A stretch of 64,000 nucleotides of DNA, taken from the IMG/VR virus record IMGVR_UViG_3300044984_001421, positions 1-64,000 of that record; one strand, 5' to 3'. Below are positions 33,836 to 61,145 of the stretch, in pieces (position 1 is the first letter of the stretch; the number at the start of each line of letters is the position of its first letter). Below the pieces are notes generated by a model. That model saw nothing but the letters and a program-made list of their open reading frames with translations, was not told the origin of the DNA and searched no databases. The position numbers and the translations under genes were made by a program. Source of the stretch: a virus.

Positions 33836-34677
33836 TTGCGTCTCCATGTTTTCAAATCATTAAGGAACCGCTCGACCATCTTTTTCGCCTCTGTCGCATC
33901 CATCCCGAACGTGTCAGAGACGAACTTAGTGAGCGAAGCAGGGTCGCGCTTGGGGAGAATGCTGCTGTCACGACTACGCAACATGCCAGCAAGCTTGTTG
34001 CGGAATACGTTGTAAACACCGTCATCGAGTGACTGCGCACGCAGCGCACCGCCGCCCGTCAGCGTCGCGGAATCGGTGCCGTAGCCAGCCTCAAGACCTT
34101 TCAGGACGAAAGCGTTCATGGACTTGGCGAAGACACCGAATGGCGATGTCGAGACGTTTGGAATGTGCTGGTTGACCGGCGTGCGAGACAGCGCGACGTT
34201 TGACCATCTCACCTTTTCCACACAGGTGACCGCGTTCTTGGTTTCAGGATCAATCCGGGTGGACTTCGCCAGGACAGAGCCACCGACAGACGGATACCAG
34301 CGCGCAGGCGGCGAAAGCTCGGTGAGCGACGCCCATACCATGTTCGCGTTTGCAGCCAGGGCTGTGTCACCCTTGTAGAGTTGCGCCTTGACGAAGGTCG
34401 TCTTGTCGTTGATCACGACATCGGTCGGCATGCCGATTTCATAGTTCTCCGGATTGGCGATTCCAGAACCGGTGCGCTTGCCGAGGATGGTCAGGTGGTC
34501 AAGGTCGACGTTGCCGTACTTCTTGTAGAACTCGGCAGACTCGGCCAGCGCTTTCGACAGCACGCGCTCGCCTTGCTGGTCGATGCCTTCATTGCTGGCT
34601 TCAAAGAAGACGAAGCGCTCGCCGCCAATTTCATGCGGCGTCGCCTTGAGAAAGTCGAAGGCAATGAAGTCGTTCAT
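33832..34677 (-). CDS. Prohead protease
   Basis: EASNE..D.QGE; G.VD.DH; SVGG; NVALS..PVN. Confidence 0.8.
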   Translation of the reverse strand: MNDFIAFDFLKATPHEIGGERFVFFEASNEGIDQQGERVLSKALAESAEFYKKYGNVDLDHLTILGKRTGSGIANPENYEIGMPTDVVINDKTTFVKAQLYKGDTALAANANMVWASLTELSPPARWYPSVGGSVLAKSTRIDPETKNAVTCVEKVRWSNVALSRTPVNQHIPNVSTSPFGVFAKSMNAFVLKGLEAGYGTDSATLTGGGALRAQSLDDGVYNVFRNKLAGMLRSRDSSILPKRDPASLTKFVSDTFGMDATEAKKMVERFLNDLKTWRRK

Positions 34678-35309
34678 TATTTACCACCAGCCTTGTCATA
34701 GGCTTCTTTGACCATCTTTGTTTCAGAGCCAAATTTCGGATTGGCGTGATGGATCGTGAGTTCGTTGTTCTTGAATGTGGCGACATGCCCGTCCTGGTGG
34801 ACCATGACGTCATGCTTGTCGCCATCCATAAAGCCCATCTTTCCCTTGTGGACGCGCCAGCCTTGATCTCCCATGGCATCCATGGTGTCGACGTGCCGAC
34901 CGCCGCCAGTCCGCATCGTGACGACTGTCTTTCCGTCAGCCCCAGACTTCGAATGAACCCACCCAGCATCCTCTGCTTCATTGCCACCTGTCAGGCGGCT
35001 TTGAAGGTCAGAAACAGCCTTCGGAGGGGTGATCGAGTTGCCTTCAGGCTTTTTCGCTATGTGGCTTGACGAATCTTTTCCGCCATTGGCAAAAATGTAA
35101 TTGCCGACGTGGTTGGTGCCAGACCAGGCATGAACAACGCCTTTCTTCGCATCCTTTTTGAAGTCGACGTTTCCGTGAACGGACTTGACTCCGGATACCC
35201 ATTCGTCATGAGACATCTTCGTGCGTTTGTCGTCGTGAGCCTGAACGACAGCGCCATCCTTCCGGGTGTACGCATCGATATGGCTCTTGAGTAGGGTGAA
35301 CTGATTCAT
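34677..35309 (-). CDS. Putative internal virion protein with LLKSH-RKDG tag
   Basis: Starts MNQFTLLKSHIDAYTRKDGAVVQAHDDKR. Confidence 0.65.
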   Translation of the reverse strand: MNQFTLLKSHIDAYTRKDGAVVQAHDDKRTKMSHDEWVSGVKSVHGNVDFKKDAKKGVVHAWSGTNHVGNYIFANGGKDSSSHIAKKPEGNSITPPKAVSDLQSRLTGGNEAEDAGWVHSKSGADGKTVVTMRTGGGRHVDTMDAMGDQGWRVHKGKMGFMDGDKHDVMVHQDGHVATFKNNELTIHHANPKFGSETKMVKEAYDKAGGK

Positions 35310-35348
35310 GCACGGCTCCTGAATATGGAGCCAGCATTGCGTCACGAC

Positions 35349-38300
35349 TTAGAACATGGATGCCTGCGGCTGATCAGTCTTTGGCTTGATGAAAGACGCA
35401 ATCCCTGTGTCGTCCAGCCCATCCATCGGGTCGGTCATAAACTCGCGCAGCATGTGCTTCTTCGCCAGGCGGTCGCGCGCAGCCTTCTCGGATTTGTGAT
35501 TGGCAACAACATCCAGCAATTCGACGTTGTTCTTCTGTCCGAGCCGGTGGATTCGCGCATTGCGCTGACCGTGGACCATGGCGGTATTCGGCGAGTCGTG
35601 CTGGATAAGCCAATTTCCGCGCTGGAGGTTGAGTCCAACGGCTGCCGCGTCAGACGCGACCATGATGTCCGCCGATGCTTCTCCGCTCTCCGGGTTGAAC
35701 TGCTTGCGCTTGGCATCCTTGTCCTGCGCCGAGTCAGATCCGGTGATGGTGACGACGCGATGGCCGGCAGCCTTCAGGCGCTTCTCGATTTCAGCAACGG
35801 CAGCGCGACTGTGCGCGAACACAACGCCGGGCTTGCCTTTGCGCGCGCCGACCAGTTCCATGACCTTGTCGATCTTGGCGTTATCCGGGTGAGTGTTGAT
35901 GATGCGCGATGCGGCGGATTCCTTGATGATGCCAAGCGACTCCTGGATGTTCTTGGCGATCGCTTCGTGCTGTTCTTCCGGTACCCCGTCGAAGGAGTCC
36001 GGGCTGATCGCCTTGCAGGATGCGACATCGACCTTGCCGGCCGTTTTTGCCGCCTTGGCTTTCGACATCGACTTGTCGAGCGCAGCAAGTGCTGACTTCT
36101 GGCCGGCAGACAGTTCGACTTGATGGACTTCATGCTGCGCGTCGACGTCTGGCGCGATAGTGTTTGAGATTACGTGGCGGGCCATTTCGCGCTTTAGCGC
36201 AGCCTTTGCAGCAATGGTGTCGCCGCCGTACTTGCGCATGAATGCTGCGCGGTCTCCGTAACGCTCGCGGTCCATTTTCGCCATGACGTCGTGAATTTCA
36301 GAACTGTCGTTCTTGATCGGATCGCCAGATCCGTAGACGTGGTATTCGGCATTATCAGAGACGGCATCGATCACGTTCGACCGAGCAGAATTCTCCTTTC
36401 CGGCACGATTTACGATCTGGTGCGCTTCATCGACCATGGTAGCGTCGAAGTTCATGCCTTCCTTGTCCATCACTTCCTTGGCCCAGGTCTTGCGCTCGGC
36501 CGGCGTCATGGCAGACAGCTTGGCGTTCATTTCTGACTCGGTGATGCCGGCGTGCTTGGCACCCAGGTGCTGCATGTCGGCGCGGAACGATTCGTGCGTC
36601 ATCACCGCGAAGTGATGGTCCGGATTCTTGTAGGCGGCAATCCGCTCTGCCTGCGACGCGCCCGGCTGACAGTGCCAGTTGAACTTGCCAGGCTCCAGGT
36701 AGCGCAGAGCCTCGCCGCCAAATTGCCCCTGGACGACAGAAGGCACCAGCATCAGCGCCCGCTTGATCTTGCCGGTTTCGTGCAAGTGCGAGAACGCGCC
36801 CAGGTAGATGCCGGTCTTTCCGGAGCCGGCACCGTAGGACAGAACCGTCCGCTTGTTGGCTTCGATGTGCTTGATGGCACGCTGCTGCGGCGTGTACTTG
36901 TCGTTCATCGACGGCTGCCACAGCTTCGTCGGATGCCCTGGTTTGAAGTTCTTCCCGACCACCGACATCATGCCGGCGATCTGCTGCTCGGCGGCATGGC
37001 CCAGCGTGTGGCGTTCGTCGGCCCCCAGCGGAACCTTTTTCCCGGCGTCAGGAAGATGGTCTTCTTCGGTCGAGAAGAAACCCATCTGCGACTGTTCGAA
37101 TGCCGCCTTGGCTTCCTGCTGCGCCTCGATCTTGTCTGCAACAGATCCTGATGAGTACTTGCCACCGGCACGCTCGCGCAGAGAATCCACCAGCGCGCGA
37201 TGCGATTCCTCACGCTTGGCACGTGCGGCAGGATCGACTGCATCCAGGTGGTTCAAGTTGCCAGCGATAACCGTCTTGCCGACCTTGAGCGGGTTCTTCT
37301 TGTTGAGCGTGTTGTGGACTTCTGCAAACTTGCTGACAACATGGGAGCGGACCAAGTCCTGCACCGACTTGATGGCATTCTCCGGGCTGCCCATGATGCC
37401 GACGTACTTGTTCCAGTCCAGGCCGGAAGAACCAGCAACCTGCGACAGTTCGTCACGCTTGGCATTCCAGGCTGACCACTCCGGCGTCGTGGACGTCTCG
37501 CCGAACATATCGACGGATTCCTTCTCCGGCTCGTTGGCAAGGTGCGCCTCATGTTCGTCGCGCGCCGCCTTGCCGGCTTCGTCCACTTTCGCCAGATTCT
37601 CGTTGAACCACTTCCGGAGTCCAGTGCGCTCCTGCGCAGACAGGTCGCCGATGGGCTTGAACGCTGCGACACCTTCCGGCGTTTCAGACAGCGCACGATG
37701 CAAAGCATCGACGGATTTCTGGTTGATCTCGATCTTCTGCCGATGCAGCGGAGAGCGGTCGCCGCCCATCTTCCCAACATAGTCGTCGGCCATTTTCTCG
37801 AACTCGCCAGCCAGGCTCTCGACCGGGCGCATCTTGCCGTCTTCACTCTTGAGCGGAGCAACAGAGTCGAGCGCAGCACGGTAGGCTTCAGGGTCGCCAG
37901 ACTTGGCATGGAAGTCGCCAGACTGGATATCGGCCAGGATGTCTGCGGGTGAATCGCCGTCTGCCGCGCGCCCGCCGATGTAGTCGCGGAGCGATTGCGC
38001 CAGGTCAGCGCCAGGCTTGAACGGTTGCGCCAGGCGTTCAGCGACGCCAGGCTCTGCCTTCATCGCAAGATCCGGCCGGTTGGCAAAGCCCTTCGGCAGC
38101 CAGCCGTCCTCGTCATGCTTTCCGGAGATGATGTCCATGTTCCGGCTGATCTGCTTCATGCCTTCGACATCAACAGGCGCAGCAAGTCGGTCCAGACCTT
38201 CACCGGTAATCGTGGTGACAAGGTTCCCGTTCACTGATTCCAGCTTGTAGTCGCCAGACTTCAGACCGAGCGCGTGCAGTTTGGTAATCGCCGACTTCGG

Positions 38301-40496
38301 GTCCACCTTTCCGAGCGACACCTCGACATGGTCCTTCGCGCCTTCGCGTAGCGCCATCACCAGCGACGCGCCGGCCTGCAGTTGACCGGTTGCCTGCCCG
38401 AGTACGCGCTTGGCCTGCATGACGGCTTCCCGGCGCTTGTGATTGGCTTCTTGGGCGGTTGCCAGGTCGTATCCGGTTTTGCCTTCCGGCATTTCGATTT
38501 CACCAGCGGCGTCGGCGAGTTCGCGCGCCTGCTTGACGGCATTCTGCTGGATGTCGTTCTGTGACTGGACGTGGTAATTCTCGGCACCTTGGCGGATGCG
38601 GTCCAGGTCGCCGGCTTCGTAATCCTTGTGGATGCGGCGGGCAATGATCTGCGACGCGGCACTGATGCCGAGAACGTCAACCACCGAACGGTCGATCATC
38701 GAGTCACCGGCTGCAGCCTGGGCGAAGGCGTTCAGCGCGTTGAATGCGCCGGCTCCGACGTGACCGCCAAGCGATTCCTCGCCGCCCATCTTGTCGATCT
38801 CTGACAGCAGGCCGACAGCGCCGATGGTCTTGATGTCCTGCTCCATCTGTTTGCGCGCGGCGTCTTCAACATCGGCATCCGACACTTCGAGGATGTGCGC
38901 CTTGGACTCAACCACGGAAGCGCCGTCCAGTTCCATGCTGGCATGACGCGCGGCCATTTCGAGCATCTTCAACTTCTTCTGCGCCTTCACCAGCGCGGCA
39001 GCTTTCTTGGCGTCGTCCAGCACCTTCGGCTGCGGCTTGACCGTTTCCGGATTGGCGAGCTTGAAGTCTTCTACCTCTTTGGCGATGCCGGCAGCCAGGT
39101 CTTTCTTCTCGGCAGCCTTCGACGCCTGCGCAGCCAGTTCATCCGGCGACTTTGCATCCGCGCCGTGGACATTGGTCAGTTCCGCCTCGACAGATTCCGG
39201 AGTCAAGCCTTTGTCTGCCGCGCGCTTGCCGAAGTCTTGCGAGAAGCCCAGGCCGGGCGTCTTTTCCGGCATCGGGTCGAGGTCGGCAACGGAAATCTGG
39301 TCCGGGCTGGGGTCGGTCAGCGGGATCTCTCCCAGGCCGGATGCCGCGAGAGCTTCGTGGTCTTCGACCAGATTCTTGCGGTTCATTTCAACGGCAGCCT
39401 TGGCGCGATGGAAGATGTCCTTGTCGTGTTCCTTGCGGGCTTTCGCCTGGGCTTCTTCGGACAAGCCGGCGTGCGCTTCTTCATCGAACGCCAGCGACTT
39501 GTCGTCCCAGCCCATAACGTCGGCGACCGTCTTCACGAATTCCTCGCGCTGCTTCTTGACCGACTCCTTCAGCGCGCCCTTCTCGGCTTGCTTCTGGTTG
39601 TGTATGCCGGCTGCCTTGTCGGCTTCGATTTGCTTCTTCTTGGCTTCCTGCCGAGCCTGCCCGCGCTGCTTGATGGAGTCCTTGTAGGACTCGCCGGTCT
39701 TCACCGAGCGCAGCTTAAGATGGTTCAGCGCGCCGCCCGCGCCGCCGATGACGCGCATCGAGCCGTCTTCGTGCGGCATAACCAGAATCGGGCTGCCCTT
39801 CGCGCCTGGGTGCGAATGAACAGTGACCCAATGTGCCCCGGCAGGGATGGGACCGTGCTCGGATTTCAGCATGTGCTGACCGAAGTCTAGAGAATGATCA
39901 AAGTCAACTCGGGCAACTCGGGTAACCGGGTCAATTACCCGATTTGCCCGGACTTCCGCCTTCACCATCCGCCCGTCAGCCGCCAGCACCTTCTGCTTGA
40001 ATTCCTCCACCGGCATAGCCGTGACCGGACCAAGGAAACGAGGGTCGTCGTAGTGAAGCAGGTAGGCGCGCTCGGCTTCTTCCTGGCTGGCAAATTGGAG
40101 CATCGCCTTGTCCTCGTCATACCGATCCCATGCGCCTGCCTTGCGCTGGTGGATGATGTAGACCATCGGCGCGGTTTCATCCGGCCCGAGGTAGCAATCC
40201 ACATGGTCACCGTCGACACCCAGGCTGGACAACACATAGCCGTAGGGAAACACCATCCGCGTCCCCCAGGCGTGACCGTCCCGATCAACGCCACGCCGGA
40301 ACGAGCCGGCCTCGTTTTCAATCGAGATGGTCAGGCCATTCCAGGCGACCTTGCGCTTGCCGTAGTTCCCGGCCTTGATCTGCGCCGGGGTCGGCTCATG
40401 CGGGAAACGGTAGACGGCGTTCTGAGTCTCAGCCTTCGCCAGCGGCGTGCCGACGAAAGCTGCAATGTGACTACGGAGTGCGGATAGAGAGTCCAT
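35349..40496 (-). CDS. Polyvalent protein: inorganic-pyrophosphatase-like domain plus SNF2 helicase
   Basis: GNY.K..ISIEN..GS.R.G..YGY..G.DGDHVD..DE.K.ML; GAGSGKT, DEAH, GLNLQ, QRNARIHRLGQ. Confidence 0.8.
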   Translation of the reverse strand: MDSLSALRSHIAAFVGTPLAKAETQNAVYRFPHEPTPAQIKAGNYGKRKVAWNGLTISIENEAGSFRRGVDRDGHAWGTRMVFPYGYVLSSLGVDGDHVDCYLGPDETAPMVYIIHQRKAGAWDRYDEDKAMLQFASQEEAERAYLLHYDDPRFLGPVTAMPVEEFKQKVLAADGRMVKAEVRANRVIDPVTRVARVDFDHSLDFGQHMLKSEHGPIPAGAHWVTVHSHPGAKGSPILVMPHEDGSMRVIGGAGGALNHLKLRSVKTGESYKDSIKQRGQARQEAKKKQIEADKAAGIHNQKQAEKGALKESVKKQREEFVKTVADVMGWDDKSLAFDEEAHAGLSEEAQAKARKEHDKDIFHRAKAAVEMNRKNLVEDHEALAASGLGEIPLTDPSPDQISVADLDPMPEKTPGLGFSQDFGKRAADKGLTPESVEAELTNVHGADAKSPDELAAQASKAAEKKDLAAGIAKEVEDFKLANPETVKPQPKVLDDAKKAAALVKAQKKLKMLEMAARHASMELDGASVVESKAHILEVSDADVEDAARKQMEQDIKTIGAVGLLSEIDKMGGEESLGGHVGAGAFNALNAFAQAAAGDSMIDRSVVDVLGISAASQIIARRIHKDYEAGDLDRIRQGAENYHVQSQNDIQQNAVKQARELADAAGEIEMPEGKTGYDLATAQEANHKRREAVMQAKRVLGQATGQLQAGASLVMALREGAKDHVEVSLGKVDPKSAITKLHALGLKSGDYKLESVNGNLVTTITGEGLDRLAAPVDVEGMKQISRNMDIISGKHDEDGWLPKGFANRPDLAMKAEPGVAERLAQPFKPGADLAQSLRDYIGGRAADGDSPADILADIQSGDFHAKSGDPEAYRAALDSVAPLKSEDGKMRPVESLAGEFEKMADDYVGKMGGDRSPLHRQKIEINQKSVDALHRALSETPEGVAAFKPIGDLSAQERTGLRKWFNENLAKVDEAGKAARDEHEAHLANEPEKESVDMFGETSTTPEWSAWNAKRDELSQVAGSSGLDWNKYVGIMGSPENAIKSVQDLVRSHVVSKFAEVHNTLNKKNPLKVGKTVIAGNLNHLDAVDPAARAKREESHRALVDSLRERAGGKYSSGSVADKIEAQQEAKAAFEQSQMGFFSTEEDHLPDAGKKVPLGADERHTLGHAAEQQIAGMMSVVGKNFKPGHPTKLWQPSMNDKYTPQQRAIKHIEANKRTVLSYGAGSGKTGIYLGAFSHLHETGKIKRALMLVPSVVQGQFGGEALRYLEPGKFNWHCQPGASQAERIAAYKNPDHHFAVMTHESFRADMQHLGAKHAGITESEMNAKLSAMTPAERKTWAKEVMDKEGMNFDATMVDEAHQIVNRAGKENSARSNVIDAVSDNAEYHVYGSGDPIKNDSSEIHDVMAKMDRERYGDRAAFMRKYGGDTIAAKAALKREMARHVISNTIAPDVDAQHEVHQVELSAGQKSALAALDKSMSKAKAAKTAGKVDVASCKAISPDSFDGVPEEQHEAIAKNIQESLGIIKESAASRIINTHPDNAKIDKVMELVGARKGKPGVVFAHSRAAVAEIEKRLKAAGHRVVTITGSDSAQDKDAKRKQFNPESGEASADIMVASDAAAVGLNLQRGNWLIQHDSPNTAMVHGQRNARIHRLGQKNNVELLDVVANHKSEKAARDRLAKKHMLREFMTDPMDGLDDTGIASFIKPKTDQPQASMF

Positions 40497-40524
40497 CAGC
40501 ACATCGTGGCGTCACGACACAGGG

Positions 40525-41127
40525 CTATTTGTTCTTCGAACCGGACCCGTTGTTCGCCGTGTTGACTGCGGCGTGACCATTTGCGTAAGCATGGTGCAGA
40601 GCAAGCTGCAGGCTGCGCTTGCTTACGTCATGGAAGTCTTTACGATCAGAGCCGCCCTCTTTCAGTGTGTCGAAATTGGCGAAATGCTTGGCAGCATCCT
40701 TCACCGAGTTGTCACGGTGAACACGCAGCGCGGGATTATTGCCACCAGCGCCCGCGTTGTAGGCATGTTCGAGAGCGCGCTTCGTGCTTACCTTTCCGGT
40801 GTCAACGAAGTCATCGTCGTCATGCCCGACTTCTTTGAAACCATTAACGCCAAGGTGCTTCTTTCCGGCTTCCTTGGCGGCAGACTCCATCGCATCTGAT
40901 TTGCCGGCAGCATGGACAGCATTCATCACATCCGCGTGATGTTTGGCAAACCTCTCGTCATCAAGGATGACGTGGTGCTTTCCGCCGTTCTTTACCTGAA
41001 AGCCGCCATGCTTGAACGGAGACGTTGTGAACGCAGCCTGCCGTGAATCATCATGCGCCTGCACCACAGCGCCATCCTTGCGCGTGTAAGCGTCAATATG
41101 CGATTTCAATAGGTCGAACTGGTTCAT
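40525..41127 (-). CDS. Tagged internal protein with two DUF6900-like repeats
   Basis: N-terminal tag; AK.H....TL....SD..DFHDVS...L..AL..AY..G twice. Confidence 0.6.
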   Translation of the reverse strand: MNQFDLLKSHIDAYTRKDGAVVQAHDDSRQAAFTTSPFKHGGFQVKNGGKHHVILDDERFAKHHADVMNAVHAAGKSDAMESAAKEAGKKHLGVNGFKEVGHDDDDFVDTGKVSTKRALEHAYNAGAGGNNPALRVHRDNSVKDAAKHFANFDTLKEGGSDRKDFHDVSKRSLQLALHHAYANGHAAVNTANNGSGSKNK

Positions 41128-41765: not shown

Positions 41766-41999
41766 TCAACTCTGAATCCGTTCCTTGGCAAGTCCTATCA
41801 CATGCGCCACCTTGCCGCGCTCCATGGTCAGCTTCCGGTATTCGTCGGCAGCAGACTCGTCCCCGGAAACAGCCGGCCGGAGTTCGTCCAAGCGCGAGGC
41901 AATCTCTCCGTCCCGTTCAACCGCACGGTCGTGGATACGCTGCTCTGCCGCGTTGGTACGGGCAGACAGCGCAGCCAGGTCGGAGAACAGGCGCTTCAT
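41766..41999 (-). CDS. Small helical hypothetical protein
   Basis: TAATG coupling to the upstream gene. Confidence 0.55.
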   Translation of the reverse strand: MKRLFSDLAALSARTNAAEQRIHDRAVERDGEIASRLDELRPAVSGDESAADEYRKLTMERGKVAHVIGLAKERIQS

Positions 42000-42883
42000 T
42001 AGATCCGGTGCAGCTTGGTCGGGTGGAAGTCTTTGCCGCTGTAGGTCTTCACCGATGAACCGACGTGTTCCATCACTTCGTGTTCCTTTCCGAAGTTGTC
42101 CTTCACCTTGTCGCCGCGACGGAAATAAGCGCCGTACTTCTGGTGCTCTTCGTGACCAACATCGCCAGGCTTCGGAACGCGCTGGTCGTCGTGCGCCTGA
42201 ACTACCGCGCCGTCCTTCCGAGTGTAGGCTTCGATGTGCGACTTCAGGACTTCATGGTCTTCGTCGTCTTCGTCGCGGTCTTCATCTTCGTCGTCTTCGT
42301 CATGCGGAGACAGATCGGACTCATGGTACGAAGCCTTGCTGCCGTCGCTGTGCTTGACGATGTGGAAGTGACCGCTCGGCGCGGTTTCTTGGATCACGCC
42401 GGTTTTACCTTGACCGTTGACCTTGCCGGTCACCTTCACCGAGTCGCCTTCTTTGTGCGTTACCGTCTTTTCTTCGGCGGCAGCGGAATCATCAATGGGC
42501 GCATGGTAGCGGGCATAGCCGTAGCCTTCGGTATTCACAAGATGACGCCCACCATCCTTGTGCTTCAAGACAAAGTGCTGCGGAGCATTCTCGGCGAAGT
42601 CCTTATCGAAATCTGACCCGGCCGGGCTTGTTTTCCCGGCGTTCCCGTAGACCTGTTGATGCGAGAATTCAGGAGCGCCATCCGGGATGTCGCCGGCTGG
42701 GATTTTCTTCGTGTCGCGCGACCACTCGGTGTCCTTCGACATGAACTTGTCGTCGTGTTTTTCAGCGACAGCACGGAGGTCGACCTTCTTGGTGCGCTTG
42801 TCATCATGCGCGTTCACAACGGCACCATCCTTGCGCGTGTAGGCGTCGATGTGGCTTTTCAACAGATCAAACTGGTCGGTCAT
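41999..42883 (-). CDS. Tagged internal protein with two tag copies and KOW/SH3-like domains
   Basis: LLKSHIDAYTRKDG at the N-terminus and VLKSHIEAYTRKDG after an acidic linker. Confidence 0.65.
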   Translation of the reverse strand: MTDQFDLLKSHIDAYTRKDGAVVNAHDDKRTKKVDLRAVAEKHDDKFMSKDTEWSRDTKKIPAGDIPDGAPEFSHQQVYGNAGKTSPAGSDFDKDFAENAPQHFVLKHKDGGRHLVNTEGYGYARYHAPIDDSAAAEEKTVTHKEGDSVKVTGKVNGQGKTGVIQETAPSGHFHIVKHSDGSKASYHESDLSPHDEDDEDEDRDEDDEDHEVLKSHIEAYTRKDGAVVQAHDDQRVPKPGDVGHEEHQKYGAYFRRGDKVKDNFGKEHEVMEHVGSSVKTYSGKDFHPTKLHRI

Positions 42884-51345: not shown

Positions 51346-51381
51346 TGTTATGGCCGGCATGACGACGCGAGAACTCATGCC

Positions 51382-51636: not shown

Positions 51637-51640
51637 TGAC

Positions 51641-51708: not shown

Positions 51709-51731
51709 CTTTGACAACGAAAGGATGCGCA

Positions 51732-52702: not shown

Positions 52703-53926
52703 TTACTTCATGCCAGCCTTGCTGATGACATCGTGATCTGCTTCGCTATCCAGATACAGATGAAGATCTGACTCTGGAACAAGATGCGCTGCCTGGCTCT
52801 CCCAGCCAACGTCCGCAGGCGTTCCTCCGACACGAACCGCATGATAGTAGCGTGTTACAGATGACGTCCGGTCGACGTCACAGGCATAGCCTACGATCTT
52901 CACCTTCAGGCCGGATTCTTCGAACACTTCCTTGATGGCATTCGCCTGCCAGGACATCTCGTCCTCGATTTTCCCTTTAGGGAACGTGTTTTTATAGCCG
53001 CCGAACTGGTTGGTCGGAGACACCAGCCAGACACGACCATCCGGCTCTTTGATGATGCAGCCTGATGCCGGCTTGAGTCCTTGCTTCAGATGCATGACAG
53101 GCTCGTCCAGGTCTTCCATCTGCCCTTCGACGTAATCCCACTCTTCGTCGGTCTTGGGATGATCCAGCCAGGGTGACAACGCGAGTCCGTTCAATTCGTC
53201 CGGGCAAGCGCCACCAGGGATGAACGTCGCCGTCTTCTTCTGGTCGTGCCAGGTTTCAGGCGCAGTCTGATGATTCGGGTTGTAGATCCCGACCGGCTTA
53301 CCGTTGTCGCCGTTCTTCGGGTGGTAGACCTTGGGCGGCGCTTTCGGCAGCGTGTGGAACAGGAACGAGCCGCCACCCATGCCGTACTGCGGCGCGACAA
53401 TCTTCTGGTGCGGCTGCGTACTCAGTTTCTTGATCTTGCCGGAGTCGGTGTGCTTGATGCGGAACAGCGATCCTTGGCGCTCGTAGTCCTTGACGACCGT
53501 GCCGTCCTTCTTTGTGTGACCGTGGACGTGCGACTTCGCCATCGTCTCGCCACCGGCAAGCATTTTGTCTACTGCCTTCTTTGCGTCTTCAATGCCGCCA
53601 GGATTCGCCCATGCCTGCGCACGGTAGTGGTCAGAGGACTTCTCTCCGGTGGATGGGTTGACGACCAGTTTGTAATCATGCCGGTCGAGTATCTCGAACA
53701 CCGTGGTAACAGTTTTCTTCGTGCCAGCCTTCATCTGCCCAAACACAGATTTTGTTGCCTTTTTCGAGCCTTCACGCTTGAACACGCGCAACCGAAAGCC
53801 ACGATACGGCTCGCCGACGTTGTGCTCAGTTCTTGAGTCCTCATGGGCGCGAACGGCTGTGCCGTCTTTGCGCACAAAGCCGTGGACGTGCGACTTCAAC
53901 AACCCGGAGTCGGTGACAACGATCAT
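52703..53926 (-). CDS. NUDIX hydrolase with two capsid-tag copies
   Basis: FPKGKIEDEMSWQANAIKEVFEESGL Nudix box; LLKSHVHGFVRKDG and MAKSHVHGHTKKDG. Confidence 0.8.
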   Translation of the reverse strand: MIVVTDSGLLKSHVHGFVRKDGTAVRAHEDSRTEHNVGEPYRGFRLRVFKREGSKKATKSVFGQMKAGTKKTVTTVFEILDRHDYKLVVNPSTGEKSSDHYRAQAWANPGGIEDAKKAVDKMLAGGETMAKSHVHGHTKKDGTVVKDYERQGSLFRIKHTDSGKIKKLSTQPHQKIVAPQYGMGGGSFLFHTLPKAPPKVYHPKNGDNGKPVGIYNPNHQTAPETWHDQKKTATFIPGGACPDELNGLALSPWLDHPKTDEEWDYVEGQMEDLDEPVMHLKQGLKPASGCIIKEPDGRVWLVSPTNQFGGYKNTFPKGKIEDEMSWQANAIKEVFEESGLKVKIVGYACDVDRTSSVTRYYHAVRVGGTPADVGWESQAAHLVPESDLHLYLDSEADHDVISKAGMK

Positions 53927-54417: not shown

Positions 54418-57400
54418 TCCGAATTACTCCTTAACGATTTCGCCAGCGTCTGGCCTTTAAGTTGAGCCACGAAGCCAGTGTCTGGCGGCAGCATGATAAC
54501 GTCGATGAATACGCCTTGCGGGTGGTTGTGACCGCCAGGCTGAACATCGACTACCAGATACCGCTGGCCCGGCAACGTTGTCAGTTCGCCCTCACTGCCG
54601 AGAGAGCCTGTGCCATACGTCGGCGTTGCTTTGCACCCTGCCGCGCAGCGAATCCGCATCTTGATCTGCTTGCCGTCCCCGTTCGTAAAGTGCGGCGAGT
54701 CGCCCCAGCTTTCGTGGAACGAGGTACACATCGAGTCCGTGTTCTGCAGTATAGCGCCCGGCTTGGTGGCGAGAAGCTGCTTGGTCATCGACTTGCCAGC
54801 CGTGTCGTCGTCCATCCATCGCCACATCTGCGTGCCTTCAGGAAGATCCACAGCGTCGTCGTAGATGCCAGCCGTCACCTTGTTGATCGGCGTCGAGTCG
54901 TATGACGACTTGCCATGCGACCACAGATGGTTTGCAGCACCAGAACCCTGCACACTTGAGATGTAGGTCTTGGTCGTGCTCCTGACCTTTTGATAGGCAG
55001 CCTTGAGCATTCCAGCGAACGATGTTCCTGACTTCTGCCAGAACCACTTCGTCCTTTTCAACAACGCGACAGCATCGCCTTCATCGATCTGGCACAACTT
55101 CATGAAGTACCCGAGACGGTGCTCCTGCGGGATTGTCGTCACGTTCTGGCCTGGCGCGAAAGAACCGACCGCATCGGCAATCTCGCTGACCAGACCGAAG
55201 CTGCCAAGCGACGGCATCTCCAATGTTTCGACAGGAGGATAGCCAATCGACTGCAGCGTCTGGACCAGCGACGCCCACTGCTGCTGGATGTGGTTGGAAG
55301 GATGCTCTGTAATCGGCTTCTTGCCGATGGACTGGCCGGTCTCCTTGTCCACCGCGTCGTAGTGGTAATCCTTCAACGCCTTCAGGTTGCCTTGCATGGC
55401 GAAGGCTGCCAGAGCCGCGCTGTCGGCGCTGTTTTTGTCGTTGACGTGCTGCTTCGAAGATACCGGCTTTCCGCCGTTCAGCGTGTTGAAGTCAAGCGGC
55501 GGCTTGATGTCGGCCGGGTCGACGGTCAGCTTTGTCTCATCGACCGGAGGCGTATCCCACTGGTCGACAATTCCCATCTGCTTCAGGACGTCAGCGCGCC
55601 TGGCAATCAGCTTCTTGGCAAGCGCGGCCTTTTCCGCATCCGTGCCAGGCCCGGCAATTTTGCAGAGTTCTTCGATTTGCGACGGCTTCAACTTGTTCAA
55701 CTGCTTGCCACCCCAGGCAATCGATGCGTCCGTAGCGCCGGCAAAGACCGCCGCAGCCTTGGCGTTCTTGCCGTAGTCCTTCATGGTCTTCAACTCGGCA
55801 ACCGTGTCGCCGAAGTCCGCGCCCTTCTTGCCGCCCATGGCACGGTAGTCGAGCGAACCGCCCACGTCGATGCGGACAGCGCCGCCTGAACTGTTGAGCA
55901 GCAGGTTGTCGTTCGCCATGCCGACGACATCCCAGTTGCCGATCCAGGCGTCGATGGCGAATGCCTGGTGTGCGCCAGCTGCGCTGGCAAGATTCTCAGC
56001 GCTGCCCTTCTTCATCCCATCAACCCACTTCGAGGCGATACCCAGCTTGCCGTCCTTTTCGACCAGCTTCAGCGTCGGAACATCGACGCCAAGCATCTGG
56101 TAGAACTTGGCAGCCAGGAATTCGCTGCGCACCATTTCGGCGTCGGCCGGGAACTTGCAATACCACTCCTGCCCGCCTTTGTCCTTGAACTTTCCGCCAG
56201 GGTTTGAACCCAACTGCGGACCAGTCTGCGGCCAGGAATCCATTACCGAAACGTGGTCGCCAAGCTTTGACTTGGCAATCGAGATCGGCGCTGCCGGTTC
56301 AACTTTGTGCCAATGGCCGTTTTGGAACACCAGCATGCCATCCGCGCCCTGCTTGGTATCGCCGTCCTTCGGGCTGGCAGATTGAGCGGCAGTAGAACCC
56401 AGTGCAGCGGGGTCAACGCCTTCTGCTTCCGGATCGAACTTGCCAAGCGCAGCGGCATGCATTTGCTGGCAGAACTTGTAGAACTGTTGACGACGAACAA
56501 GCGTCGAGATCGATGTACATTTTCCTGTTTTGAATCCAGTGACGTTTTGCTTCGCCGAAACAGAGCCGTCGTTGTGGAAAGTGACGTACTGCTTCAACCC
56601 TGTAACTCCGCCATTCAATACTGCGTTCTTTATCGCAGTCGAGATGTTGACGTAGATTTTTGAGTTTTGATGCGGATCAAGCGTCTCGTAATCCGGTACC
56701 GGAACTGCCGCTATCTGCTGCGCCTTGGTCAGTTTTTTCTTCTTCTTGAAGACGATGACAATCGGCGGAATCTCGGTGGGTATTGGCTCGAAGCCGGAAG
56801 AGCCGACATAGCTGTAACCGTTTGCGCCCTTCATTCCGACCAGCTTGATCGCAGCCTTGACCGCCGCGTCGTTGCTGGCATGGACTTCGTCGCCGCTGTG
56901 GCCTTTCTGCCCGATCTTGCCGTAGGTCTTGGTCAAAACAGTGCCATGGACCTCGACCTTGTAGAACTTGTTGTGCCCTGGTTTTTTGTTTTCCATGTGC
57001 GCAATCCACTTGTACCCGGTGGCAGGCTGCGCAGCAGGAGCCGCAGGAGCTGCAGCCACACCCTTGATCTTGTCCAGCATTCCGGAATCCGGCATGTGAA
57101 CGCCGAACATCTTGTCCAGCGTGTTGCGGACGTCGTTTTTGTCGAACGCGGACCATGGGCCAGAACCGCTACCATCGGCATCGGATGTGCCAATTTGGTA
57201 CTCTTTCAGGTCATTGTCCCAGCCCACATAGATGGTTGATGTGGCTGTGTGCTCAAGCAGGATCACGTTGTTCCCGCTGAACCCTTCGTCGTTCATCGAC
57301 ACTTGCCAGGTGCCGGATGGCGCAGGAGCATCGGACGCTGCCGGCTTGGCCGATTCCTGCTCGGCCTTTTCCTTCAGAAACTCCTGCTGTCCATTGGTCA

Positions 57401-60041
57401 AAGAATGCCAAAGCGCCCACATGGTCTTGTCCGTGTTGTCGGTCTGCGGCATGCCAGCCGAGATCCACAACTTGAGCGCGTGCTCGTCTTCAGCAGACAC
57501 ATTGGATGGAGCAACCTGCAAGTGCCAGCGACCGTTGAACAGGACGTAGTTCTTGCCGTTGATTTCCTTGACGTCGCCCTCTTTCGGCCCGCCTTCCTGC
57601 GTTTTCTGGCCTGGATGAAAGGCCAGGTTGAGCATCTTTATCGGGTCAGCGCCTTCGTTCTGGACAGCAACCTCGACCGCAAGTTCATAGGACGCTGAGT
57701 GCATCGGCGGCGATGCGGGAGCAGGAATCTCGCCGGCCAGCATCGAGAACATGGCAGCCTTCCAGCCGTTCTTGCTGTAATCCTGTCCGGTCAAGATGTT
57801 CTTCCAGGAGCCGTCCTTCTGCTTCTGGTAGTTGTGCCCTTTGTACGAAGCGTTCACCGCCATCTTGCCAGCGGCAGCATCCATCTTGCCGGCCGTTTGC
57901 ATGGCCTGGTCGAGCGCGTACATCGGAGAAGACCAGCCGTCGCCGTCCAGTTCATCGTCGATGAACGACTGATAGAAGCCATCGGCAGTCTTGACGACCT
58001 TCACATGGTGCCCGTTTACGTTGTCGAACAACACAGTCTCGCCGGCAGCAGGAGGAACGTCAGGCATTACCGGAGCACCGACCTTGCCGCCTTGTTTCTT
58101 GTTTTCCGCCTTCAAGTGCTGGACTGCCGTCTTCAACGCGGAAGGTTTCAGCCCTGCGTTGTTCGCCAGAGCCGTAACGACACGCTCCAGCGCTTCACTC
58201 GGAACGTGGGCGAGGACCGACATATGATCAATCACGGCGTTGATTGCTTCCTGCGACGGCATGTCGGGAGTGGATGGCTTCGAAGCTGCAAGCCACTGCT
58301 CTCCTGCCTTGTCGATCAAGTGACCAACTTTATCCAGCCCATGCTTGGCAATCGCCGCACTTATGTGCTGCTGGCCGTTCAGTTCCTCGTAAGTCATTGC
58401 TTCGTGCTGCTCGACAGTCGGCACCTTGCCGGCATCGAGCGAGGCGTGCCAGCCATCAACGCCAGGGATGGTGTGCGGGTCAACGTCTGGCGCGACCTCT
58501 GATTCATGCAGCCACACGGCAACCTGCTTCGGGTTGAATCCGTTCTTTTGATACGTCCCTTGATCGACACTGGATAGGTGGGCATACACCGTCTCGTCGG
58601 CCGAGAGCTTTGCGCCGATGGCGAGCAGATACCACTTGCCACCGTCGTAATCGACGACCTTCTTGTCGGCCATCTTCGCCTGGTATTCTGCCTTTTCTTT
58701 TTCGGCTAAAGACGGCGACTTGTGCCAACGCCCGTCCTTGAAGGTCAGCGTCCCGCCTTCGCCTTGCTTGGTGTCGCCATCCTTCGGCGAATCATCCGCT
58801 TGCAGCACCACCTTTGCAGTACCGGCAGCGAGCGCAGCGTGCAGCGTCTCCTTCGGGATTGAGACGGTGTTCTTCGGGCCAGGCACCGTCGCTCCGACCT
58901 TGTGCATCTGGTAGGAGTCTGCGCTCTGGTTGTAGATCGTCCAGTCGCCCGCGTTCATCTTGGCGTACTGGCTGTCCAGCTTCAGCACAGCGCCGGTCTT
59001 GAGGTCCGGGTGCTTGGCAGGCTCTGGTACCGGAGCGGCAATGTTCGCGGCATTCCAGCCGACAGACCACTCCTGCAGCGCGTCCATGTATTCGGCATAC
59101 GGCAGATGGTTGTGCGCCTGCAAGAAGTCCTGGTCGATACCTGCTGCGTGCGGCTTTCCAGCAGCGAACGCCGCTGCGCCGTATTCCTTCGGGGTCATGG
59201 GCTTCTTGTCGTTCGCATCGACATGAACAGGCGACGTGTCGCTGTTTTCCGTTTTCTTCGACACGACACCCATCAATGCCTCGGCCTTTTCAGCGCCAAT
59301 GGCCGACTCGATATCTGTCGCCATTTTGGCGACTTTGACCGGGTACTTAGCTGCGTACTCGAAGTACGCCTTCTTCTGGCCGGAAGTCGGCGTCTGGCCG
59401 GCGAGCATTGCCGCCTTCCAGCCCGAAACAGCAGCGGACAGCGAAGCCTCGGCCTGCAGATCGGTGGCGTGCGCCAGGACCAGCATCGCCTTGTCGTGGT
59501 CGCCAAGCGCGCCGAAGTCTTTCAGTTCCGCCGACAGCTTCTTGTGCGCGGCTTTCTGGTAGTGCGAGCCTTGGCCGTTTCCGACCTTGGCATGGTCGTG
59601 GTCGTCCGAGACGTTGACCATCTTGTGATGGGCATGGATTACCGTGCCGTCCTTCTTCACCGACGCAGGAATCCACATCTCCTTTTTCACGGTCGCCTTC
59701 AGCAAGTCCTCGGTGAACACCAGTATTGACTTGTGAATCGGCACGCCGGAAGACTTCGCGTTCTGAACAGCCGCATGCAACTGCTCGGCGGTTGCACCTT
59801 CGCCGCCGAATAGATCGTTCGTGCATTTTTCAGGCTTCTTCATGCATTCGTCAGAGAACGGCGACGCCTTCATGGGTGGTGCTTTCGGACGGGCGAACAG
59901 ATCAGACGTGTGCGCGTCCTTGGAGGCTCCGCGCGAGTTTGAATGCGGTGACACCTGGACGACGCGACCGTTGGCAAGGCGACGCTCGTAGCCACGCACA
60001 GCGCCCTTGATGATGTCGGTGACGAAAAACATGATGGTCAT
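54330..60041 (-). CDS. Giant polyvalent protein: WGR + HipA/PI3K-like kinase + ADP-ribosyltransferase
   Basis: NKFYKVEV..YGKIGQKG (WGR); GSNPGG..WYCK..E.LAAKFY..DAWIGNWDVVG..N..RIDVG (kinase); MWRW..CTS..EGE (R-S-E ART). Confidence 0.75.
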   Translation of the reverse strand: MTIMFFVTDIIKGAVRGYERRLANGRVVQVSPHSNSRGASKDAHTSDLFARPKAPPMKASPFSDECMKKPEKCTNDLFGGEGATAEQLHAAVQNAKSSGVPIHKSILVFTEDLLKATVKKEMWIPASVKKDGTVIHAHHKMVNVSDDHDHAKVGNGQGSHYQKAAHKKLSAELKDFGALGDHDKAMLVLAHATDLQAEASLSAAVSGWKAAMLAGQTPTSGQKKAYFEYAAKYPVKVAKMATDIESAIGAEKAEALMGVVSKKTENSDTSPVHVDANDKKPMTPKEYGAAAFAAGKPHAAGIDQDFLQAHNHLPYAEYMDALQEWSVGWNAANIAAPVPEPAKHPDLKTGAVLKLDSQYAKMNAGDWTIYNQSADSYQMHKVGATVPGPKNTVSIPKETLHAALAAGTAKVVLQADDSPKDGDTKQGEGGTLTFKDGRWHKSPSLAEKEKAEYQAKMADKKVVDYDGGKWYLLAIGAKLSADETVYAHLSSVDQGTYQKNGFNPKQVAVWLHESEVAPDVDPHTIPGVDGWHASLDAGKVPTVEQHEAMTYEELNGQQHISAAIAKHGLDKVGHLIDKAGEQWLAASKPSTPDMPSQEAINAVIDHMSVLAHVPSEALERVVTALANNAGLKPSALKTAVQHLKAENKKQGGKVGAPVMPDVPPAAGETVLFDNVNGHHVKVVKTADGFYQSFIDDELDGDGWSSPMYALDQAMQTAGKMDAAAGKMAVNASYKGHNYQKQKDGSWKNILTGQDYSKNGWKAAMFSMLAGEIPAPASPPMHSASYELAVEVAVQNEGADPIKMLNLAFHPGQKTQEGGPKEGDVKEINGKNYVLFNGRWHLQVAPSNVSAEDEHALKLWISAGMPQTDNTDKTMWALWHSLTNGQQEFLKEKAEQESAKPAASDAPAPSGTWQVSMNDEGFSGNNVILLEHTATSTIYVGWDNDLKEYQIGTSDADGSGSGPWSAFDKNDVRNTLDKMFGVHMPDSGMLDKIKGVAAAPAAPAAQPATGYKWIAHMENKKPGHNKFYKVEVHGTVLTKTYGKIGQKGHSGDEVHASNDAAVKAAIKLVGMKGANGYSYVGSSGFEPIPTEIPPIVIVFKKKKKLTKAQQIAAVPVPDYETLDPHQNSKIYVNISTAIKNAVLNGGVTGLKQYVTFHNDGSVSAKQNVTGFKTGKCTSISTLVRRQQFYKFCQQMHAAALGKFDPEAEGVDPAALGSTAAQSASPKDGDTKQGADGMLVFQNGHWHKVEPAAPISIAKSKLGDHVSVMDSWPQTGPQLGSNPGGKFKDKGGQEWYCKFPADAEMVRSEFLAAKFYQMLGVDVPTLKLVEKDGKLGIASKWVDGMKKGSAENLASAAGAHQAFAIDAWIGNWDVVGMANDNLLLNSSGGAVRIDVGGSLDYRAMGGKKGADFGDTVAELKTMKDYGKNAKAAAVFAGATDASIAWGGKQLNKLKPSQIEELCKIAGPGTDAEKAALAKKLIARRADVLKQMGIVDQWDTPPVDETKLTVDPADIKPPLDFNTLNGGKPVSSKQHVNDKNSADSAALAAFAMQGNLKALKDYHYDAVDKETGQSIGKKPITEHPSNHIQQQWASLVQTLQSIGYPPVETLEMPSLGSFGLVSEIADAVGSFAPGQNVTTIPQEHRLGYFMKLCQIDEGDAVALLKRTKWFWQKSGTSFAGMLKAAYQKVRSTTKTYISSVQGSGAANHLWSHGKSSYDSTPINKVTAGIYDDAVDLPEGTQMWRWMDDDTAGKSMTKQLLATKPGAILQNTDSMCTSFHESWGDSPHFTNGDGKQIKMRIRCAAGCKATPTYGTGSLGSEGELTTLPGQRYLVVDVQPGGHNHPQGVFIDVIMLPPDTGFVAQLKGQTLAKSLRSNSEWDKKETVIVYRQEPSRTRQARPVLAILM

Positions 60042-60044
60042 TGA

Positions 60045-61145
60045 TCAACCCTTCTTTAGATTCTGTTTCAGCCAGGCATCGAACTGGCTGTTGCTGCCAC
60101 TAACCGTCTTCGTCAGTTTTTCCCACATGCCACGGCAATGCGGGTGGAACACGCCAGAAGAAGGCTTCCACATTTCAGAGTCCATGCGCTTGACCAGGCC
60201 GGTCGGCGTTTTCTTGTACGGCGATGAGGATCGGCCGACGTTGTTCTTGCCGACCCAAACCTGGGTGTCCCAGTTCTTCTCTTTGGCATCCGGCGACACG
60301 ACGTCGAAGACCTTCCCGTTGACCGAAGTGCAGAACGCGCAAGCGCCGTCGTAACGCTCATGCCGGCGCACCTGATCACCCACTGCGCACGATGCGATAA
60401 ACCCTTGGTTCGCGTTTTCGCCAGCCTCTGTAACGGCAATTCGCCGCCAGTCACGATTCATGTCGCCGAAGTCGTCCAGCAGCTTCTGCTGCAACGAGGT
60501 CCGACCTTCCTTGTCTGGCACGCCGAGAAACTTCTGCTCCTGCCAGTCGATGATCGAAGTCTTGAGTTTGGCGCGCATCTTATCGGTGATGCTGGTCACG
60601 TACTGGCAGCAGCGAGCCGATCCGAACTCCATCGCGGCTTTTTGCTGGCTTGCCATGCCGCCAAACATCGCCTCTGTGGATTTGATGCTGAACGGTGCAG
60701 CCATCATCAGCGCGGTCGCCTGCGCAAACGTGATGCCGCTGGCGCGCGCCTGGACTTGCCCCATGATGTTCGAGCGAACAGCCAACCATTCGGCTTCTTG
60801 CAACATCACGTCCTGCGGGAAGTAGCGCTGGACGAGGTAATCGACAACCATCATCCAGTCATCAAGCGTGAACAGTTCTGGCGGGACGTTTTCAAGGTAA
60901 TGCCGCGCGGCCGAAAGCTCTCCAGGAGTCCATCTCTGGACCGAACCAGGCGTGACGACATAGCCAGGCCGGTCCTTGTTATCCAGCCAGCGAGACAACT
61001 CGGACTGCAGCGCGCCGAATTTATCCAGCCCCTTGTTGGTCCATTGCTCGATCAGGTGGCGGATAAACTGCGACTCATGCGGTCGCCATGGGTCATCGCC
61101 CGGACGGGCAGCCTTCAAGAGTTCTTCGTCGCAGTGTTCGCACAT
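60045..61145 (-). CDS. MuF-like minor head morphogenesis protein
   Basis: RIAVTE..N.G; CAFC; HPHCRG. Confidence 0.75.
   Translation of the reverse strand: MCEHCDEELLKAARPGDDPWRPHESQFIRHLIEQWTNKGLDKFGALQSELSRWLDNKDRPGYVVTPGSVQRWTPGELSAARHYLENVPPELFTLDDWMMVVDYLVQRYFPQDVMLQEAEWLAVRSNIMGQVQARASGITFAQATALMMAAPFSIKSTEAMFGGMASQQKAAMEFGSARCCQYVTSITDKMRAKLKTSIIDWQEQKFLGVPDKEGRTSLQQKLLDDFGDMNRDWRRIAVTEAGENANQGFIASCAVGDQVRRHERYDGACAFCTSVNGKVFDVVSPDAKEKNWDTQVWVGKNNVGRSSSPYKKTPTGLVKRMDSEMWKPSSGVFHPHCRGMWEKLTKTVSGSNSQFDAWLKQNLKKG

Follow-up and report, generated by a model that had tools for sequence, protein, structure and literature searches.

In bacteriophage T4, the internal protein Alt is an ADP-ribosyltransferase (ART), and the prohead protease gp21 cuts after the motif L/I-x-E| (throughout, a vertical bar marks a cut or candidate cut). 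Alt and the internal proteins IPI-III carry a capsid targeting sequence (CTS) that is removed by gp21, as described in parts of PMC3012670, PMC9026906, and PMC7697877. Here, we analyze a short peptide element, hereafter called the tag, which is encoded several times in a stretch of viral DNA from IMG/VR record IMGVR_UViG_3300044984_001421. The window under study is the first 64 kb of this 85,367-bp record, for which CheckV estimates a completeness of 93%. The T4 CTS is similar to the tag in that it is a short N-terminal signal on unrelated, non-essential proteins that are packed in the head and injected, and in that it ends at the cut motif of the prohead protease. The tag consists of a leader or joint ending in h-x-K|S/A (h, hydrophobic), followed by a predicted beta-hairpin of about 20 residues. 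Our preferred reading, with a probability of roughly 0.55, is that this composite of cut site and retained hairpin is carried by cargo proteins that are packaged in the head, cut, and injected.

Several features set the tag apart from the T4 CTS. The cut motif is different (L/I-x-E| in T4, h-x-K|S/A here), and the T4 head lineage differs from the SPO1/Twort-like capsid encoded in the window. The conserved targeting part is cut off in T4, whereas the most conserved part here, the hairpin, follows the cut and would be kept. An initial annotation of this DNA, made from the sequence alone, had compared the tag to a removable leader of the T4 type; this comparison is only partly right, because a cut at K|S would take only the first 7-13 residues and would leave the conserved part of ~20 residues in place. 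The signal here is also found internally, repeated inside multi-module proteins. A further likeness concerns the cargo: T4 Alt is an ART, and homologues of a 1903-amino-acid (aa) protein of the window have a predicted ART C-terminus.

Other described systems share parts of this picture. In phages SPN3US and phiKZ, the prohead protease cuts many head-internal ejection proteins at a shared short motif during maturation, as stated in portions of PMC10052503, PMC7411985, and PMC5694885. These phages differ from the system here in phage group, protease motif, and proteins. To our knowledge, no conserved retained hairpin module is known in the SPN3US/phiKZ system. The cargo itself resembles the polyvalent proteins of Iyer, Burroughs, Anand, de Souza, and Aravind (2017), for which packaging in the capsid and delivery at infection are predicted in parts of PMC5512222. 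As in the passages of that paper on domain content and gene neighborhoods, InPase, ART-PolyVal, Zeta, ddrB-ParB, PBECR, LPD, and SNF2 helicase domains occur in a MuF/portal/head neighborhood. Disparate domains are joined in one polypeptide in a 1717-aa protein (InPase and helicase) and in the 1903-aa protein (a WGR domain and a C-terminus homologous to an annotated ART), and the neighborhood comprises portal, MuF, the 1903-aa protein, NUDIX, tagged genes, helicase, protease, scaffold, and capsid. Processing by in-built zincin-like metallopeptidase domains is proposed in parts of PMC5512222 as a common theme and not a requirement; no peptidase family was found among the Pfam matches (E <= 1) of the two giant proteins of the window. 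The portions of PMC5512222 concerned contain neither a prohead-protease site nor a YTRKDG-type hairpin, whereas the joints here look like prohead-protease sites.

To search for the tag, a regular expression and a hidden Markov model (HMM) built from its copies were applied to the full 85,367-bp record, translated into 1649 stop-to-stop open reading frames (ORFs). They located, in four minus-strand ORFs, six strong copies of hhK[S/A]H[V/I]..YTRKDG..V.AHDD.R, each with an independent E-value (i-E) of at most 2e-18. The runner-up in the HMM scan was the 1903-aa protein (E 0.022), and all remaining ORFs had an E-value of at least 0.22. All genes concerned lie on the minus strand. Three of the copies start genes, namely those of a 210-aa protein (34677-35309; tag at 35223..35309, i-E 9e-23), which opens with eight leader residues, the last three being LLK, before S and the hairpin, of a 200-aa protein with DUF6900 in its C-terminal part (40525-41127; tag at 41041..41127, i-E 2.5e-21), and of a 294-aa protein (41999-42883; tag at 42794..42883, i-E 3.4e-20). 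The last protein contains another copy at ~aa 213-236 (42176..42247, i-E 3.5e-20), which abuts an acidic D/E-rich linker. Three window genes begin with M(T)[ND]QF[DT]LLK. The remaining two strong copies belong to a NUDIX protein (52703-53926, with a Met at 53926 and the NUDIX domain at aa 285-396), one close to its N-terminus (53828..53899, i-E 1.8e-19) and one internal at ~aa 130-153 (53468..53539, i-E 1.9e-18).

These results confirm what the initial annotation had noticed, namely a near-identical peptide at the start of the 210-, 200-, and 294-aa proteins that recurs inside the last of them (i-E of at most 3.4e-20 at the three starts), and they raise the two variants that it saw in the NUDIX protein to strong copies. 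Its claim of two further variants in the 1903-aa protein (54330-60041, minus strand) held less well. A long-loop variant at aa 10-37 (59931..60014, i-E 3.3) and a variant with an insertion in the first strand at aa 113-139 (59625..59705) are individually non-significant, with an i-E of 2-3 each and an E-value of 0.022-0.036 for the whole ORF. The second is conserved in two homologues from other viral contigs (L005 and L014), where it stands at the N-terminus and is preceded by a hydrophobic leader ending in K|A (ILFLK|A and LLFMK|A). The first may only weakly be called a tag, by its resemblance to long-loop variants in the database.

At the DNA level, the six copies share 43-71% nucleotide identity. 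Comparison of the four copies most alike shows 21-27 identical residues, of which no more than 6-13 use the same codon. The same residues are thus encoded by differing codons, which shows that the peptide is under selection and was not recently copied. The regions 3' of the tags are mutually unrelated by BLAST (best E 0.043), in agreement with the unrelated downstream parts described initially. Chance or low complexity as the source of the tag was rejected by the HMM scan together with the database profile search, and recent duplication or gene conversion was rejected on the basis of the diverged synonymous sites.

A profile of the six copies was searched against 1.84 billion representative metagenome proteins. 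It matched 685 of them at a threshold of E <= 1e-3, and 110 at the stricter E <= 1e-10. Inspection covered the best 150 of these 685 matches, ranked by likeness to the window copies; they are 73-2019 aa long and hold 229 tag copies. A position could be assigned to 228 copies: 87 stand at an N-terminus and 102 are internal without a nearby Met, while the remaining 39, also internal, have a Met 4-13 residues upstream, so that some of them may reflect over-long ORF calls. The consensus is [LFM][LAF]K[SAT]H[VI].[AG][YF]T[RK]KDG[TA].V.[AE]H[DE]D[KS]R, after which Ala/Pro/Lys-rich linkers follow. The residue before the candidate cut (P1) is Lys in 94% of the copies, and the residue after it (P1') is S in 67%, A in 20%, and T in 6%, percentages that are inflated because the best 150 were chosen by similarity to the window copies. 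A Pfam scan covered 136 of the best 150 and 13 of the 14 long ones. The majority of the scanned tagged proteins had no Pfam match; the domains found fused to the tag are InPase, DUF6900, Zeta toxin, ART-PolyVal, ADPrib_exo_Tox, RadC, NUDIX, ddrB-ParB, PBECR3, LPD3, PolyA_pol, Acb1, S-adenosylmethionine (SAM) lyase, DUF5661, and RelA_SpoT. Up to four Pfam domains occur in one protein (P0097), with its three tags between them. The tag HMM and the catalogue of fused domains that had been suggested at the outset thus return 685 matches and the domain set of polyvalent proteins.

No Pfam, PHROGs, or NCBIfam model covers the tag, and a homologue search with the tag region returned 26 proteins, none informatively named. 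The 210-aa tagged protein gave no usable feature match in the ESM Atlas, and its structure neighbors all had a template modeling (TM) score below 0.5. Six loci related to P0012, a protein with a MIRK|GMV... variant, showed an ART-domain match only, and none of them is tagged. A description of the motif was not found in the literature, including portions of PMC5512222, PMC9503643, PMC3601020, and PMC6409932, in a search for which peptide motifs are hardly text-searchable and which did not extend to supplementary domain lists.

Several independent lines of evidence make it very likely that h-x-K|S/A is the prohead-protease site of the lineage. The prohead (head maturation) protease gene (33832-34677, minus strand; phrog_1028, E 7e-31) adjoins the genes of the scaffold (33215-33847, minus strand) and of the major capsid protein (31741-33183, minus strand; phrog_752, E 9e-87), and its product shares 42-55% identity with annotated capsid maturation or prohead proteases. 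When counts of L-x-K-[S/A] were compared with 2000 shuffles per protein, the scaffold was strongly enriched, with 6 L.K[SA] sites observed against 0.30 expected (P < 0.0005; 8 sites of the form h.K[SAG]), and the protease had 2 sites against 0.28 expected (P 0.03). Related scaffolds hold 7-9 h.K[SAG] sites at aligned positions in 11 of 11 cases. The MuF-like minor head protein (60045-61145, minus strand), which shares 37-46% identity with annotated minor head or particle-associated proteins, has LLK|A at aa 9-12, ahead of the conserved core. In 7 of 8 homologues, hhK|[AS] or h.K|[AS] is placed ~10 residues ahead of W.PHES, and the MuF of Yersinia phage fHe-Yen8-01 (Yen_002) adds another. By regular expression, hhK[SAGT] is found within the first 45 residues in 8 of the 9 genes from MuF to scaffold, and in the NUDIX gene too if it is started at Met 53926, versus 0 of the 14 ORFs between portal and MuF (61.2-70.5 kb).

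The candidate maturation site of the capsid is LQK|S at aa 27-30. This capsid belongs to the SPO1/Twort lineage: tblastn returned 422 phage records, mostly with Herelleviridae-type hosts, together with closer ~90-kb Gram-negative myoviruses. The nearest cultured relatives by capsid, ~86-95-kb Gram-negative myoviruses, are Pseudomonas phage Touem01 (61%), Morganella phage Mecenats66 (57%), and Bordetella phage PHB04 (49%), together with Aeromonas phage ST4, Pseudomonas phages Dolphis and Jeremy, and fHe-Yen8-01. The window capsid is homologous to SPO1 Gp6.1 (E 7e-29), to a 463-aa chain (9e-16), and to a 439-aa chain (1e-14). PDB chain 9row_B (439 aa) equals 5lii_P (463 aa, from what we take to be the phi812 head) without its first 24 residues, so that it starts at the Ser of VVK|SFQTGYG, which is aligned with LQK|SLTAGYG (S30) of the window. 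We infer that this shorter chain reflects the mature capsid N-terminus. SPO1/Twort-like (Herelleviridae-type) heads (PDB 5lii, 9row, 9vel) are similar to the head here in their homologous capsid, and the shorter of their deposited chains starts at the Ser aligned to LQK|S. The aligned position is occupied by LNK|A in SPO1 Gp6.1 and by L.K|A in the capsid proteins of fHe-Yen8-01, Dolphis, and ST4. The SPO1/Twort-like phages differ in being large Firmicutes myoviruses, and we know of no report of tagged cargo for them.

Candidate sites of the same kind are found where the modules of large proteins meet. The 1717-aa protein (35349-40502, minus strand) combines InPase with an SNF2-type (SNF2/ResIII) helicase. 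At their junction (39861..39971, minus strand), the InPase part ends with MVK|A (39960-39971, aa 178-181), a degenerate stretch follows, and MLK|S stands directly ahead of the helicase module. The pattern P.MIK[AS] lies at the InPase domain end in 17 of the 18 homologues listed, and homologues that show it are P0016, P0050, P0053, P0082, P0097, L010, L013, and L022. Immediately past it, the chain either runs on into a tag or terminates within 8-17 residues, most of which are hydrophobic. Separate helicase genes in PHB04, Mecenats66, L010, and L013 start with a hydrophobic leader of 7-16 residues and K|A, exactly at the MLK|S of the window; the matching K|A site of L011 lies within a longer ORF. 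The initial annotation had listed L-x-K-[S/A] starts in the capsid, scaffold, MuF, and helicase. This stands for the enriched scaffold and for the conserved positions of the capsid, MuF, and helicase MLKS sites; the other helicase site, LAKA, is unaligned in L006, and InPase-first proteins other than that of the window carry N-terminal hhK|S leaders in its place. A gene border coincides with a tag in the NUDIX protein as well. The fHe-Yen8-01 protein fHeYen801_131 (272 aa) matches aa 129-403 of the window protein with its aa 1-265 (44% identity, E 1.5e-78), and it starts with M-L-K|A and the hairpin precisely at the internal NUDIX tag. The proposal that internal tags turn some genes into polyproteins is supported indirectly, in that the module borders at which such tags stand are, in other phages, the borders of separate genes.

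The genomic context of the tag points to the phage head. In the window, the tagged genes sit inside the head module, with MuF on one side and protease, scaffold, and capsid on the other. Thirteen IMG/VR loci bear the tag. The tagged ORF overlaps a MuF-like homologue or lies at most 2.3 kb downstream of one in L010-L013, and it lies 8 kb upstream of one in L016 and L017. L006 is syntenic with the window in the order tag, InPase-helicase, tag, protease, scaffold, capsid. The same capsid family was detected in 3 of 5 tag-bearing records searched (49-59% identity), the other two being fragments that are 25-27% complete. In the cultured-phage collection, neither the head region (by megablast) nor the 294-aa protein (by tblastn) had a match, and tags there emerged only by profile search. 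Divergent tags were found in this way in Touem01 (one), Mecenats66 (one), and PHB04 (three, one of them at the N-terminus of a giant N6-methylase). Stronger ones were found in Dolphis gp116 (i-E 7.5e-19) and gp119 (8.3e-13) and in fHe-Yen8-01 gene 131 (4.1e-12), with one in ST4. The interval from MuF to protease contains cargo genes in the window, L006, PHB04, and Mecenats66, and has none in Touem01, ST4, Dolphis, and fHe-Yen8-01. In Dolphis (L053, 83718-89137) and fHe-Yen8-01 (L052, 77810-85555), the tagged genes, encoding a giant ART protein, a small protein, and the NUDIX homologue, are located upstream of the terminase and not between MuF and protease, and the cargo cluster therefore moves as a block within the phage group.

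Annotations of one of these relatives bear on the virion. In the GenBank record of fHe-Yen8-01, gene 131, the homologue with tag and NUDIX, has the product name "particle associated protein". Gene 129 is named "ADP-ribosyltransferase toxin" and bears a note that reads "phage particle associated protein"; it starts with the leader MLVLAK|A, and its counterpart in the window is the 1903-aa protein, whose last 600 residues are homologous to it (31.5% identity, E 3e-57). Particle association is likewise recorded for the MuF-like gene 002, for the protease, and for gene 004 at the scaffold position. A literature search for virion proteomics of Mecenats66, PHB04, Dolphis, and fHe-Yen8-01 returned none. 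The tagged proteins of the window are very probably virion cargo.

With regard to the hairpin, AlphaFold2 placed two short strands around the RKDG turn in 21 tag copies (mean pLDDT, the predicted local distance difference test, 63.8) and predicted a beta-hairpin in the scaffold at aa 68-81, directly after K67|S68, with strands at 68-73 and 76-81 (mean pLDDT 60.1), both models being of low confidence. When the tag profile was aligned to the scaffold alignment by hhalign, the best local match was scaffold aa 65-82, where a K|S site is followed by a stretch with a DG turn (P 0.011 with 5 and with 11 scaffolds), a weak similarity at P ~0.01 and an HH probability of 4%. A MNQFDLLK-type leader pattern, which was written after viewing the scaffold and tag groups, occurs in 6 of 11 scaffold N-termini and 19 of 88 proteins with an N-terminal tag; among 838 background ORFs it occurs in 7, all of them scaffolds or tags. 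Taken together, these are no more than suggestive of scaffold mimicry by the tag. A more far-reaching version, which we regard as doubtful, is that the cargo tag is a miniature scaffold, whose leader would copy the MS.FD.LL helix and whose K|S-hairpin would copy the element of the scaffold. An enzyme given this cassette of ~30 residues would co-polymerize with the scaffold core, would be released by the protease that also dismantles the scaffold, and would stay in the head, and the protease would use the same trick through a copy of the capsid N-arm. If mimicry were true, it would provide a portable and predictable code for loading arbitrary proteins into capsids across hundreds of phage protein families. 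As a separate observation on the scaffold gene, its translation probably starts at the second Met (33821-33835; MSEFDKL...), like the MSQFDELL, MSKFDELL, and MSQFTQLL starts of relatives, and this N-terminus resembles the cargo leaders MNQFDLLK and MNQFTLLK.

On the preferred reading, the tag would combine two elements. The leader or joint, ending in a hydrophobic residue, any residue, and Lys before Ser/Ala, would be the cut site of the prohead protease of this lineage, and the same K|S/A site would serve to trim the N-termini of the capsid and MuF and to chop the scaffold into peptides. The second element, a beta-hairpin of ~20 residues, H[VI]..YT[RK]KDG[TA].V.[AE]H[DE]D.R, usually followed by a flexible linker, would start at the new N-terminus and be retained on the product. 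The carriers, which include NUDIX, the WGR/ART-like giant, InPase-helicase, DUF6900, and proteins without assigned function, would be accessory effectors. Tagged proteins would co-assemble into the procapsid, the protease would cut each joint so that multi-module genes act as polyproteins, and the products would be ejected along with the DNA. Cutting of the cargo at K|S/A by the prohead protease is probable. The hairpin would most likely be an adaptor that holds the module in the scaffold or capsid interior, possibly by imitating the K|S-plus-hairpin of the scaffold; this role in loading or retention is put forward tentatively. The plug-and-play system for packaging, maturing, and injecting effectors that was envisaged initially is thus supported in part, and indirectly, by the head-module location, the polyvalent domains, the particle-associated homologues of two tagged proteins, and the candidate protease site.

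Three other explanations have to be considered. The hairpin could escape cutting and be a binding module in its own right, with a role after delivery or unrelated to the capsid; its partner might be a component of the host or the envelope, a metal, or nucleic acid. In that case, hhK[SA] would be the start of the first hairpin strand, and the likeness of these residues to a protease site would be a coincidence in cargo proteins. The hairpin core is indeed present without hhKS, as K[TP]VHV..YTRKDGT.V.AHDR, in small Acidobacteriota/Planctomycetota proteins (L033:9908-10405, L035:9800-10354, L036:9830-10648, and L038:9767-10345), where it directly follows signal-peptide-like N-termini, and P0022 and P0087 hold 3-6 hairpins each with Ser/Thr/Pro linkers. 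The two neighborhoods checked, those of L036 and L038, are ordinary chromosomal and non-phage. The hairpin is kept under every processing model, and the Ala/Pro/Lys-rich linkers trail it in the manner of an adaptor on a leash. In addition, the C-terminus of P0022 matches the PBCV-specific basic adaptor domain (PF08789, E 2.9e-4), which is similar to the tag in being very small and fused in one or more copies to unrelated proteins; the tagged proteins of the window have no PF08789 match at E <= 1, and the sequence motif differs. However, the prefix of two hydrophobic residues, K, and S/A is phage-specific and matches the site that is enriched in 11 of 11 scaffolds and found at the capsid maturation point, and K|S/A leaders without a hairpin exist on helicase, InPase, MuF, and ART proteins. 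Over 227 copies, the 21 residues that follow the Lys carry an average net charge of only +0.65, which disfavors a general DNA-binding role and weakens the candidate of a basic DNA-binding peptide. We therefore consider an uncut binding module unlikely, and the hairpin appears, from its occurrence in these proteins, to be an older portable mini-module that phages put behind a protease site. Some of the bacterial hairpin proteins have a C-terminal stretch that looks HNH-like by eye and was not confirmed by any tool.

Another explanation is that the leader alone, like the T4 CTS, is the signal for targeting and cutting, and that the hairpin serves retention, ordered ejection, stability of the module, or protection of the new N-terminus instead of loading. 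Leaders of the K|S/A type without a hairpin are common among head-module proteins, including the helicases of PHB04, Mecenats66, and L013, the InPase proteins P0015, P0082, and that of L013, MuF and ART proteins, Dolphis gp117, and fHeYen801_129, indicating that cut site and hairpin are separable and that the tag is a composite. The hairpin is also found at internal joints that need no new targeting (102 of 228 copies), which suggests a role per product after the cut, and class-1 leaders resemble the scaffold N-terminus. On the other hand, the hairpin-like element that follows K|S in the scaffold itself fits a role in co-assembly, and retention or ejection cannot be separated from loading by the present data; in our judgment a leader-only signal is improbable to about the same degree as the uncut module. 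It is far less probable that the tag DNA represents recombination cassettes or recent duplicates for the swapping of effectors, with no function of the peptide. Tags do occur at module borders that vary among phages, and cargo sets differ between Touem01, ST4, Dolphis, and fHe-Yen8-01 on the one side and the window, L006, PHB04, and Mecenats66 on the other, but the low identity of the tag DNA and the mostly different codons for identical residues largely refute this explanation, as there are no long identical stretches to drive homologous exchange.

Several points count against the composite of cut site and retained hairpin. L.K[SA] counts are at chance level singly in the capsid, MuF, helicase, and 1903-aa protein, and it is positional conservation and not count that constitutes the evidence there. 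Since the hairpin lies after the cut, it is not required for cutting, and a hairpin is absent at the capsid and MuF sites and at the majority of the scaffold sites. The presence of the hairpin core in ordinary bacterial proteins implies that its basic function is not capsid-specific. The particle notes of fHe-Yen8-01 are annotation that is mute on cleavage, and no paper behind them was found in the literature search. The low confidence of both hairpin models, the weak scaffold-tag similarity, the inflated conservation values, and the possible over-long ORF calls add to these points. The analysis establishes the motif itself, protein-level selection on it, its broad spread as a module, its setting among head genes, and the statistics of the sites; cleavage of the cargo at K|S, its packaging in this phage, and the role of the hairpin we infer.

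Phages pack and inject enzymes that disarm host defenses, and the selection of proteins for packing has been worked out for just a handful of model phages. In the present case, a single short cassette appears to fill this role for a whole clade of ~85-98-kb myoviruses and for at least 685 metagenome protein families. Its passengers include Acb1, which acts against the cyclic-oligonucleotide-based antiphage signaling system (anti-CBASS), SAM lyase, ARTs, Zeta-type kinases, NUDIX, and ParB-like domains. If the grammar of the tag holds, injected phage proteins could be predicted from sequence alone, including domains of unknown function that would be likely counter-defense factors, and the points at which giant polyvalent proteins are cut into working units would be revealed. 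It would also provide a handle for loading chosen proteins into capsids.

Some further features of the record can be described. The portal gene lies beyond the window (70449-72896, minus strand). In the interval between portal and MuF, a 709-aa protein rich in Ala/Thr/Gly/Ser (61644-63773, minus strand) contains many repeats of ~13-15 residues (ALTG..V..S.GTL) and has no Pfam or PHROG match. The minus-strand operon of head and cargo genes is split between the NUDIX gene and the gene of the 294-aa tagged protein by a block of plus-strand genes at 44.8-52.4 kb, opposite in orientation to the head genes; this ~7.6-kb block (44801-52415) contains an HNH/AP2-like ORF (45320-45805). The C-terminal aa 187-224 of the protease (34006-34119) copy the capsid N-arm at aa 27-58 (33010-33105), with LKGLEAGYGTDSATLTGGGALRAQSLD in the former and LQKSLTAGYGTDVASLTGGGALRIQSLD in the latter, and the protease matches phrog_752, the family of the capsid, at aa 187-222. 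The copy is also present in L006, Touem01, fHe-Yen8-01, and G002-G004, and it may be a possible route of the protease into the procapsid. In the tail-fiber region, two adjacent ORFs (12014-12559 and 12657-13406, minus strand) have in common a near-identical block of ~130 residues (CYGCSGEYAFNDTVW ... HITAVTLSC) and differ at their ends, so that they look like alternative receptor-binding tips.

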